This document shows, piece by piece, positions 7,449 through 9,906 of a stretch of 64,000 nucleotides of DNA. The notes beneath the pieces were generated by a model that searched no databases, was not told the DNA's origin, and worked only from the letters and a program-made list of their open reading frames with translations. The position numbers and the translations under genes are program-made. Origin of the DNA: Escherichia coli (GTDB taxonomy: Bacteria > Pseudomonadota > Gammaproteobacteria > Enterobacterales > Enterobacteriaceae); assembly GCF_003334765.1 (NCBI RefSeq), contig NZ_QOWT01000003.1; one strand, 5' to 3'. Position 1 is the first letter of the stretch. Every line of letters begins with the position of its first letter.

Positions 7449-8612
7449 ATGTCTGTAATTAAGATGACCGATCTGGATCTTGCTGGGAAACGTGTATTTA
7501 TCCGTGCGGATCTGAACGTACCAGTAAAAGACGGGAAAGTAACCAGCGATGCGCGTATCCGTGCTTCTCTGCCGACCATCGAACTGGCCCTGAAACAAGG
7601 CGCAAAAGTGATGGTAACTTCCCACCTGGGTCGTCCTACCGAAGGCGAGTACAACGAAGAATTCTCTCTGCTGCCGGTTGTTAACTACCTGAAAGACAAA
7701 CTGTCTAACCCGGTTCGTCTGGTTAAAGATTACCTCGACGGCGTTGACGTTGCTGAAGGTGAACTGGTTGTTCTGGAAAACGTTCGCTTCAACAAAGGCG
7801 AGAAGAAAGACGACGAAACCCTGTCCAAAAAATACGCTGCACTGTGTGACGTGTTCGTAATGGACGCATTCGGTACTGCTCACCGCGCGCAGGCTTCTAC
7901 TCACGGTATCGGTAAATTCGCTGACGTTGCGTGCGCAGGCCCGCTGCTGGCAGCTGAACTGGACGCGCTGGGTAAAGCACTGAAAGAACCTGCTCGCCCG
8001 ATGGTGGCTATCGTTGGTGGTTCTAAAGTATCTACCAAACTGACCGTTCTGGATTCCCTGTCTAAAATCGCTGACCAGCTGATTGTTGGCGGTGGTATCG
8101 CTAACACCTTTATCGCGGCACAAGGCCACGATGTGGGTAAATCCCTGTACGAAGCTGACCTGGTTGACGAAGCAAAACGTCTGCTGACCACCTGCAACAT
8201 CCCGGTTCCGTCTGATGTTCGTGTAGCAACTGAGTTCTCTGAAACTGCACCGGCTACCCTGAAATCTGTTAACGATGTGAAAGCTGACGAGCAGATCCTG
8301 GATATCGGTGATGCTTCCGCTCAGGAACTGGCTGAAATCCTGAAGAATGCGAAAACCATTCTGTGGAACGGTCCGGTTGGCGTGTTCGAATTCCCGAACT
8401 TCCGCAAAGGTACTGAAATCGTGGCTAACGCTATCGCAGACAGCGAAGCGTTCTCCATCGCTGGCGGCGGCGACACTCTGGCAGCAATCGACCTGTTCGG
8501 CATTGCTGACAAAATCTCCTACATCTCCACTGGCGGCGGCGCATTCCTCGAATTCGTGGAAGGTAAAGTACTGCCTGCAGTAGCGATGCTCGAAGAGCGC
8601 GCTAAGAAGTAA
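7449..8612 (+). CDS. pgk: Phosphoglycerate kinase
   Basis: [26 protein letters not shown]... canonical Pgk; highly biased codon usage typical of a glycolytic gene. Confidence 0.95.
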
Positions 8613-8620
8613 AAAATCAC

Positions 8621-8647
8621 AGGGCAGGGAAACCTGCCCTTGTTTCA
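8621..8647 (+). terminator. Intrinsic terminator after pgk
   Basis: 8-bp perfect stem AGGGCAGG/CCTGCCCT with GAAA loop, followed by a T-rich run. Confidence 0.6.
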
Positions 8648-8714
8648 GCGCGCTTTTAAAGCACGCACTTTTTCATACTCTAAATAATTCGAGTTGCAGG
8701 AAGGCGACAAGAGA

Positions 8715-8800
8715 GTGAATCCCCAGGAGCTTACATAAGTAAGTGACTGGGGTGAGCGAACGCAGACGCAGCACATGCAACTTGAAGTATGACGAGTATA
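8715..8800. repeat. ERIC/IRU intergenic repeat (partial copy)
   Basis: Contains GTGAATCCCCAGGAGCTTACAT immediately followed by AAGTAAGTGACTGGGGTGAGCG, which I recognise as the two core ERIC segments; no right-hand inverted terminus seen. Confidence 0.8.
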
Positions 8801-8826
8801 AGGCCCGACGATACAGGACAAGAGAC

Positions 8827-9906
8827 ATGTCTAAGATTTTTGATTTCGTAAAACCTGGCGTAATCACTGGTGATGACGTACAGAAAGTTTTCCAGGTAGC
8901 AAAAGAAAACAACTTCGCACTGCCAGCAGTAAACTGCGTCGGTACTGACTCCATCAACGCCGTGCTGGAAACCGCTGCTAAAGTTAAAGCGCCGGTTATC
9001 GTTCAGTTCTCCAACGGTGGTGCTTCCTTTATCGCTGGTAAAGGCGTGAAATCTGACGTTCCGCAGGGTGCTGCTATCCTGGGCGCGATCTCTGGTGCGC
9101 ATCACGTTCATCAGATGGCTGAACATTATGGTGTTCCGGTTATCCTGCATACCGACCACTGCGCGAAGAAACTGCTGCCGTGGATCGACGGTCTGCTGGA
9201 CGCGGGTGAGAAACACTTCGCTGCTACCGGTAAGCCGCTGTTCTCTTCTCACATGATCGACCTGTCTGAAGAATCTCTGCAAGAGAACATCGAAATCTGC
9301 TCTAAATACCTGGAGCGCATGTCCAAAATCGGCATGACTCTGGAAATCGAACTGGGTTGCACCGGTGGTGAAGAAGACGGCGTGGACAACAGCCACATGG
9401 ACGCTTCTGCACTGTACACCCAGCCGGAAGACGTTGATTACGCATACACCGAGCTGAGCAAAATCAGCCCGCGTTTCACCATCGCAGCGTCCTTCGGTAA
9501 CGTACACGGTGTTTACAAGCCGGGTAACGTGGTTCTGACTCCGACCATCCTGCGTGATTCTCAGGAATATGTTTCTAAGAAACACAACCTGCCGCACAAC
9601 AGCCTGAACTTCGTATTCCACGGTGGTTCCGGTTCTACTGCTCAGGAAATCAAAGACTCCGTAAGCTACGGCGTAGTAAAAATGAACATCGATACCGATA
9701 CCCAATGGGCAACCTGGGAAGGCGTTCTGAACTACTACAAAGCGAACGAAGCTTATCTGCAGGGTCAGCTGGGTAACCCGAAAGGCGAAGATCAGCCGAA
9801 CAAGAAATACTACGATCCGCGCGTATGGCTGCGTGCCGGTCAGACTTCGATGATCGCTCGTCTGGAGAAAGCATTCCAGGAACTGAACGCGATCGACGTT
9901 CTGTAA
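8827..9906 (+). CDS. fbaA: Fructose-bisphosphate aldolase class II
   Basis: MSKIFDFVKPGVITGDDVQKVF... canonical FbaA, 359 aa; the track ORF begins upstream, conserved start at 8827. Confidence 0.95.
   Translation: MSKIFDFVKPGVITGDDVQKVFQVAKENNFALPAVNCVGTDSINAVLETAAKVKAPVIVQFSNGGASFIAGKGVKSDVPQGAAILGAISGAHHVHQMAEHYGVPVILHTDHCAKKLLPWIDGLLDAGEKHFAATGKPLFSSHMIDLSEESLQENIEICSKYLERMSKIGMTLEIELGCTGGEEDGVDNSHMDASALYTQPEDVDYAYTELSKISPRFTIAASFGNVHGVYKPGNVVLTPTILRDSQEYVSKKHNLPHNSLNFVFHGGSGSTAQEIKDSVSYGVVKMNIDTDTQWATWEGVLNYYKANEAYLQGQLGNPKGEDQPNKKYYDPRVWLRAGQTSMIARLEKAFQELNAIDVL

Follow-up and report, generated by a model that had tools for sequence, protein, structure and literature searches.

A full-length ERIC element in the pgk-fbaA intergenic region of Escherichia coli

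The spacer between pgk and fbaA in a central glycolytic operon of Escherichia coli holds a repeated element of the ERIC (IRU) family, and the locus raises two questions: whether this copy is complete or has lost one of its ends, and whether it has any consequence for the message in which it lies. The original prediction, made from a stretch of DNA of 64,000 nucleotides (64 kb, hereafter the window), had placed the element at 8715-8800, judged it truncated for want of a right-hand terminal inverted repeat (GGGGATTCAC), and proposed that it may contribute to processing or stability of the epd-pgk-fbaA transcript. The region of the window around the element is that of E. coli: a 321-nt query matches E. 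coli chromosomes with 100% identity, and in these records pgk and fbaA are annotated under the match, the gene order of K-12 being epd-pgk-fbaA-mscS. The location was correctly given, as the element lies between the pgk stop, ending at 8612, and the fbaA start at 8827. This spacer measures 214 nt in the window, the length also given for the pgk-fbaA intergenic region by Olvera et al. (2009; PMC2759082).

We searched the window with a 44-mer made of the reverse complement of ERIC1R followed by ERIC2, the sequences used being those of the standard primers, as confirmed in the literature. It has a single exact match, at 8715-8758 on the plus strand, and no match in any of 100 shuffles of the window, even with three mismatches allowed. 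Both core segments are present and perfectly conserved (44/44), as had been predicted. An inverted-repeat search of the spacer returned a central pair (8721-8734 with 8739-8752) and, outside it, two arms of 24 nt (8675-8698 with 8776-8799). Both termini of ERIC are found in the window, the left one reading TATACTCTAAATAATTCGAGTTGCAG... and the right one ...TGCAACTTGAAGTATGACGAGTATA.

The same extent is obtained by comparison with copies elsewhere. In a blastn search with 8665-8810 against a plasmid collection, which also contains many mislabelled chromosome pieces, ERIC copies from unrelated loci cover 8675-8801 of the window, the matches running from query positions 8-11 to 136-139 and typically from 11 to 137. 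Eight independent copies were taken with their flanks from other loci and species: from E. coli, those at yafP-pepD, yhbW-ubiV and yehI and one from a locus of a Shiga-toxin-producing strain; from other genomes, those at Salmonella virK-pipB2 and Klebsiella aerogenes ybjO-potI, one upstream of ushA in K. pneumoniae, and one on a Kosakonia plasmid. Their joint alignment with the window copy has sharp similarity edges at 8674/8675 and 8800/8801, with unrelated flanks; the aligned elements start with (T/C)ATACTCTAAATAATTCGAG and end with GACGAGTATA(A). Far from lacking significant similarity to an ERIC consensus, an outcome that the original prediction had named as one that would count against it, the window copy is identical to the consensus of the other eight at 125 of 128 positions (39/41 in the left arm, 44/44 in the core, 42/43 in the right arm). 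An nhmmer profile of the nine copies aligns its positions 2-127 to 8675-8800 (E = 1e-43) and reveals no second ERIC in the 64 kb of the window. Among 21 copies, we saw none in which the ERIC consensus reaches beyond 8674-8801. The pgk-fbaA ERIC is full length, with both termini present and paired with one another (Table 1).

These results also explain how a complete element came to look truncated. It is true that GGGGATTCAC does not occur to the right of the core, its sole occurrence in the window being the minus-strand reading of 8715-8724, that is, the left edge of the core. No ERIC copy carries GGGGATTCAC on the right: the 21 aligned copies all have CTGGGGTGAGCG, or a sequence close to it, in the right half and in no case CTGGGGATTCAC, and GTGAATCCCCAG...CTGGGGTGAGCG is the imperfect central inverted repeat of ERIC and no terminus. 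The truncation was claimed because this central repeat was taken for the terminal one, a mistaken view of ERIC anatomy, and it is contradicted by a full-length alignment including both termini. The interval first proposed covers only the right two thirds of the 127-bp element, because the 40-nt left arm was omitted. The main value of the present analysis is a correct annotation in place of one derived from a mistaken idea of the ERIC ends.

Table 1. Features of the pgk-fbaA spacer, other Rfam matches in the window, and diverged ERIC copies at the same site in other genomes
Feature	Position	Strand	Basis or remark
pgk stop codon, TAA	8610-8612	+	sequence reading
Terminator-like hairpin after pgk stop, GGGCAGGGAAACCTGCCC then TTGTTTC	8621..8640	+	inverted repeat, 8/8 bases complementary; outside ERIC
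Second small hairpin, GCGCGC-TTTTAAA-GCACGC	8648..8666	+	minimum-energy fold of spacer; on pgk hairpin side of ERIC, outside ERIC
Full-length ERIC (IRU), 127 bp	8674..8800	+	CA 8674-8675, body 8676-8798, TA 8799-8800
Left terminal inverted repeat arm	8675..8698	+	24 nt, 79% complementary to 8776-8799; paired in minimum-energy fold
ERIC core (ERIC1R and ERIC2 primer sites)	8715..8758	+	exact 44-mer; contains central imperfect inverted repeat 8721-8734 / 8739-8752
Right terminal inverted repeat arm, true right end	8776..8799	+	inverted-repeat search, fold and covariation; similarity stops at ...GACGAGTATA
fbaA ribosome-binding region	8815..8829	+	AGGA 8815-8818, ATG 8827-8829; kept in ERIC-less species
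ES036/CssrF, just downstream of fbaA	9992-10034	-	Rfam, above gathering score
SIB antitoxin RNA	23106-23256	-	Rfam, above gathering score
6S RNA (ssrS)	23905-24088	-	Rfam, above gathering score
naRNA4/CssrE, REP-derived	37599-37676	-	Rfam, above gathering score; sole REP-derived match in window
Diverged same-site, same-orientation ERIC, Lelliottia amnigena	L106 324-451		spacer alignment
Diverged same-site, same-orientation ERIC, Citrobacter sp. FP75	L011 1348-1475		spacer alignment
Diverged same-site, same-orientation ERIC, soil metagenome-assembled genome CTSoil_132	L021 1347-1474		spacer alignment

ERIC, IRU and RU-1 are names of elements of the Enterobacteriaceae that are said to have been described by Sharples and Lloyd in 1990 and by Hulton, Higgins and Sharp in 1991. 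The pgk-fbaA copy resembles them in its length of 127 bp, its 44-bp core, its two terminal arms, its single long stem-loop, its intergenic position within a transcribed region and its presence in multiple copies. Reviews list 127 bp, terminal inverted repeats and flanking TA among the traits of the family (PMC2229807; PMC3184786). Every testable defining feature of ERIC/IRU is found here save the last, since the flanks are CA on the left (8674-8675) and TA on the right (8799-8800) instead of a perfect TA/TA pair, and nothing else of substance sets this copy apart. The median number of ERIC places found by megablast in an E. coli genome is 6, and blastn gives 11-18 places in the E. coli chromosomes within the plasmid collection; 19-21 copies are given for K-12, each described as a single long stem-loop (PMC2267715). 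The element between pgk and fbaA is an already known element of a known family, and an ordinary copy of it.

Two other families invite comparison. REP/BIME sequences, such as those of malE-malF, are repetitive palindromic intergenic elements of operons able to shield upstream mRNA from 3' exonucleases. The present element shares with them the nature of a repeated palindromic hairpin between the genes of an operon, but they form a separate family, with G+C-rich units of ~35-40 nt and no sequence similarity to ERIC. At gathering thresholds, Rfam reports nothing in the pgk-fbaA spacer. Below them, model positions 1-129 of the Vibrio RNA AS5 (V_AS5, RF02818) align end to end with 8673-8792 and have the same hairpin architecture. 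The match scores 38.9 bits (E = 2.4e-7 to 4e-7), and because the gathering score is 96 we do not regard ERIC as a member of V_AS5. Relatives of ERIC are known in Vibrio cholerae (PMC2267715), and it is most likely these that the resemblance reflects; repeats related to ERIC are probably the templates from which the Vibrio RNAs are transcribed. Other permissive Rfam matches, to BSnc120, SNORD19B and mir-7147 (E 0.047 to 9), were dismissed as chance.

As an RNA of 128 nt, the plus strand of the element folds into one long stem-loop of -48.9 kcal/mol, compared with -24.9 +/- 3.0 kcal/mol for shuffled sequences (z -7.9), the first helix pairing 8675-8680 with 8794-8799. The minus-strand RNA takes the same fold more weakly (-38.8 kcal/mol, z -4.6), because several of the pairs are G.U on the plus strand. 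Structure prediction for the pgk-fbaA intergenic transcript, proposed along with the original claim as a way of checking it, gives the same picture, the ERIC forming one long self-contained hairpin and remaining a self-contained domain in a 311-nt model of the junction RNA.

The pairing is also upheld across copies. We aligned 21 distinct ERICs, drawn from the nine copies above, ten copies from viral contigs, and those of Hafnia, Citrobacter sp. FP75 and a metagenome-assembled genome. A scan of viral contigs with a 19-mer of the left arm had given 15 loci: two (L095 and L101) are cut by contig ends, a third (L093) was rejected as a chance match in G+C-rich DNA, and the others are full-length ERICs. 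Across the 21 copies, standard pairs occupy 93.4% of cells and 14 of 37 pairs have changed on both sides, whereas sliding the 3' partners by 1-3 columns lowers the pairing to 31-38%. In helices 1 and 2 standard pairs make up 94-98% of cells, with compensatory changes present, and the terminal helix itself covaries, one of its pairs being UA in 12 copies and CG in 7.

How the element came to be in this spacer may be read from relatives that are without it. We took 80 loci encoding FbaA from genomes chosen to represent their species and determined the length of the pgk-fbaA spacer in each. ERIC-less spacers are 87-97 nt long (Kluyvera 87, Citrobacter werkmanii 88, Enterobacter cloacae 92, K. pneumoniae 97), or 101 nt in Salmonella Senftenberg, as against 214 nt in E. 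coli. These relatives share with E. coli both small hairpins and the AAGGCCGAAGATACAGGAC...ATG stretch, and are missing exactly the ERIC. Apart from a remnant in E. albertii, the ERIC is the only large difference from ERIC-less spacers of 87-101 nt. The insertion is a clean one at a CA/TA dinucleotide; 62 nt separate it from the pgk stop and 26 nt from the start of fbaA. The dinucleotide at the empty site is CA in Salmonella, K. pneumoniae, C. werkmanii and Kluyvera and TA in E. cloacae, and the CA/TA flanks would fit a duplicated dinucleotide with one substitution.

The two small hairpins deserve mention in their own right. That at 8621-8640 is kept in all aligned Enterobacteriaceae spacers, with or without ERIC; a consensus scan reports a terminator there on the minus strand only, the run of T on the plus strand being weak. 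The stem at 8648-8666 varies in sequence between genera and retains its palindrome in spacer alignments, which suggests that, independently of ERIC, the spacer conserves an RNA feature or a terminator at this point.

Within E. coli the insertion is essentially fixed. At least 5415 of 5426 complete genomes carry at least 80% of the 321-nt query, 40% of which is ERIC, and a synthetic query of 314 nt representing the empty junction is split, in all of the 12 best matches listed, into two pieces spanning 440-441 nt, that is, 314 plus ~127. The insertion is also older than the split of E. coli and E. albertii, since E. albertii NBRC 107761 carries it (L081 1421-1473, homologous to 8675-8799 of the window). 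There, an internal deletion of 72 bp has removed the whole core and kept both termini, leaving a spacer of 142 nt and a stub hairpin of 16 bp (-13.2 kcal/mol, z -3.8). If a truncated copy is to be sought at this locus, it is that of E. albertii and not that of E. coli. ERIC-PCR primers would not bind the E. albertii copy.

Turning to the message, no transcript was found by 5'RACE to start within the 214 nt of the spacer, and the operon is described as polycistronic, with fbaA relying on promoters further upstream (PMC2759082). A consensus scan likewise gave no sigma-70-like promoter site in 8400-9000. With neither a start site nor a promoter-like site found in the spacer, the ERIC should be transcribed within the read-through mRNA of pgk and fbaA. 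The resulting stem-loop would sit between the terminator-like hairpin of pgk and the ribosome-binding site of fbaA, and is predicted to leave the accessibility of the latter unaltered, the mean unpaired probability of the ribosome-binding region being 0.48 with the ERIC and 0.49 when it is deleted in silico. In this position the hairpin could stop 3'-to-5' exonucleases and thereby protect the pgk segment. Alternatively, an endonucleolytic cut in the AU-rich (U-rich) single-stranded stretch at ~8667-8675 would leave the ERIC as a protective 5' stem-loop for fbaA. A full-text literature search found no RNase E data for the pgk-fbaA spacer.

The nearest experimental precedent concerns Yersinia, where ERICs have an orientation-dependent effect on the stability of the flanking mRNA (De Gregorio et al., 2005, as summarised in PMC2229807, PMC3184786 and PMC10969869). 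Members of the destabilising class touch or overlap the stop codon of the preceding gene, so that ribosomes uncover an RNase E site located in the right-hand repeat (PMC2229807; PMC3184786; PMC10969869). The E. coli element likewise lies between two operon genes, is transcribed along with them and folds into a hairpin in the RNA, and the role proposed for it is the same orientation-dependent modulation of mRNA stability. It differs from the destabilising class in lying 62 nt past the pgk stop, behind two small hairpins, so that ribosomes should not reach it and the unmasking mechanism is unlikely at pgk-fbaA. Its AU-rich arm (UCUAAAUAAUUCG) is on the 5' side, which would correspond to the non-destabilising orientation of Yersinia.

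We put at about three in four the probability that the spacer contains a complete, near-consensus ERIC which acts as an autonomous stem-loop of the mRNA and alters the stability of one mRNA segment modestly at most. The part in transcript processing or stability suggested by the original prediction is plausible and is the standard hypothesis for ERICs; the conservation of the hairpin together with a strand asymmetry of its G.U pairs, described below, lends it indirect support. The operon does not require the ERIC for its expression, because close relatives manage without one, and any function would be dispensable, given that E. albertii has lost the core and that Salmonella, Klebsiella and others have an empty site.

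The evidence on constraint comes from diverged copies in other genomes, since the E. coli copy is so near the consensus that it is uninformative on the matter. Escherichia, Lelliottia, a Citrobacter species and a soil enterobacterial genome all have an ERIC at this site, which is empty in genera between them. The three diverged copies are 65-77% identical to that of E. coli and still fold into its hairpin, with energies between -50 and -57.5 kcal/mol; of 39 pairs, 7 are compensatory. At consensus Watson-Crick pairs, the two same-site copies that were counted have 10 G.U against 1 A.C, and the remaining 19 aligned rows, most of them copies from other loci, have 10 against 8; the sample is small, with ~11 changes in two lineages. 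An excess of G.U on the mRNA strand is what constraint at the RNA level would produce, and is not expected of a strand-symmetric DNA palindrome.

The shared site in Escherichia and Lelliottia may reflect either a single old insertion that was afterwards lost, precisely, more than once, or separate insertions at the same target. Lelliottia-type copies are about equally distant (70-80%) from all ERICs, and the E. coli copy is 93-98% identical to the other near-consensus (E. coli-type) copies aligned. It is mildly interesting that this exact site has been occupied recurrently or for a long time across genera, with substitutions that preserve structure and are biased by strand. On these comparisons of sequence we would entertain, with considerable reserve, the idea that the pgk-fbaA hairpin is a selected RNA element and not a passive repeat. 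Were this so, ERIC capture would amount to a recurrent or long-maintained tuning of pgk versus fbaA output from one operon.

The opposite reading, in which a complete ERIC sits in a tolerant spacer without effect on expression, its hairpin being kept by template switching or gene conversion and not by selection, has to be weighed against the same observations. Palindromes can persist without selection through template-switch correction of quasi-palindromes during replication. Such a neutral origin would accommodate close relatives that have the same small hairpins and ribosome-binding site and no ERIC, the loss of the core in E. albertii, the unchanged predicted accessibility of the ribosome-binding site, and the 98% identity of the copy to other E. 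coli ERICs, which is expected after recent insertion or gene conversion. It sits less easily with the presence, in at least three other lineages, of a like-oriented element at this site whose hairpin energy is intact despite 23-35% divergence, and with the ratio of G.U to A.C of 10:1 on the mRNA strand as compared with 10:8 in the other rows, which strand-symmetric repair of a palindrome does not predict. On balance we consider a wholly neutral passenger improbable, and retain as the main reading an autonomous stem-loop of at most modest effect.

The locus offers a natural set of variants for testing whether an ERIC has an effect on differential expression in a central glycolytic operon: the full element in E. 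coli, the core-deleted stub in E. albertii, diverged yet folded copies in Lelliottia and a Citrobacter species, and empty sites in Salmonella and Klebsiella.

It is very improbable that the ERIC supplies a promoter for fbaA or encodes a small RNA or peptide of its own. Such a role would draw on the sub-threshold match of the whole element to V_AS5, a family of Vibrio antisense RNAs, on the mention in reviews of open reading frames within ERICs (PMC2229807), and on an open reading frame that begins inside the element in frame with fbaA. The lack of both a sigma-70-like site in 8400-9000 and a 5'RACE start in the spacer (PMC2759082) speaks against it, as does the distance of the V_AS5 match (38.9 bits) from its gathering score. 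The reading frame, listed mechanically at 8743-9906 on the plus strand with a GTG at 8743, was rejected as giving the fbaA start: since ATG 8827 and its AGGA are conserved in species without ERIC, the GTG is an artefact of the listing.

Least probable of all, and refuted by the full-length alignment, is the view that the ERIC is partial, its right-hand terminal inverted repeat having been lost: the absence of GGGGATTCAC to the right of the core and the existence of truncated ERICs, among them those of Salmonella plasmids and the internally deleted E. albertii copy at the same locus, can be cited for it, but no ERIC has that sequence at its right end (where the 21-copy consensus has CTGGGGTGAGCG), similarity continues to both edges with arms that match the consensus, and the two termini pair with one another.

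Two observations on ERICs elsewhere may be added. Right-truncated ERICs, comprising the left arm and the core and matching 8672-8759 of the window only, are present on many large plasmids of Salmonella enterica. In Hafnia paralvei (L025 2782-2907), the pgk-fbaA spacer is without ERIC, and one ERIC lies downstream of fbaA in the opposite orientation.
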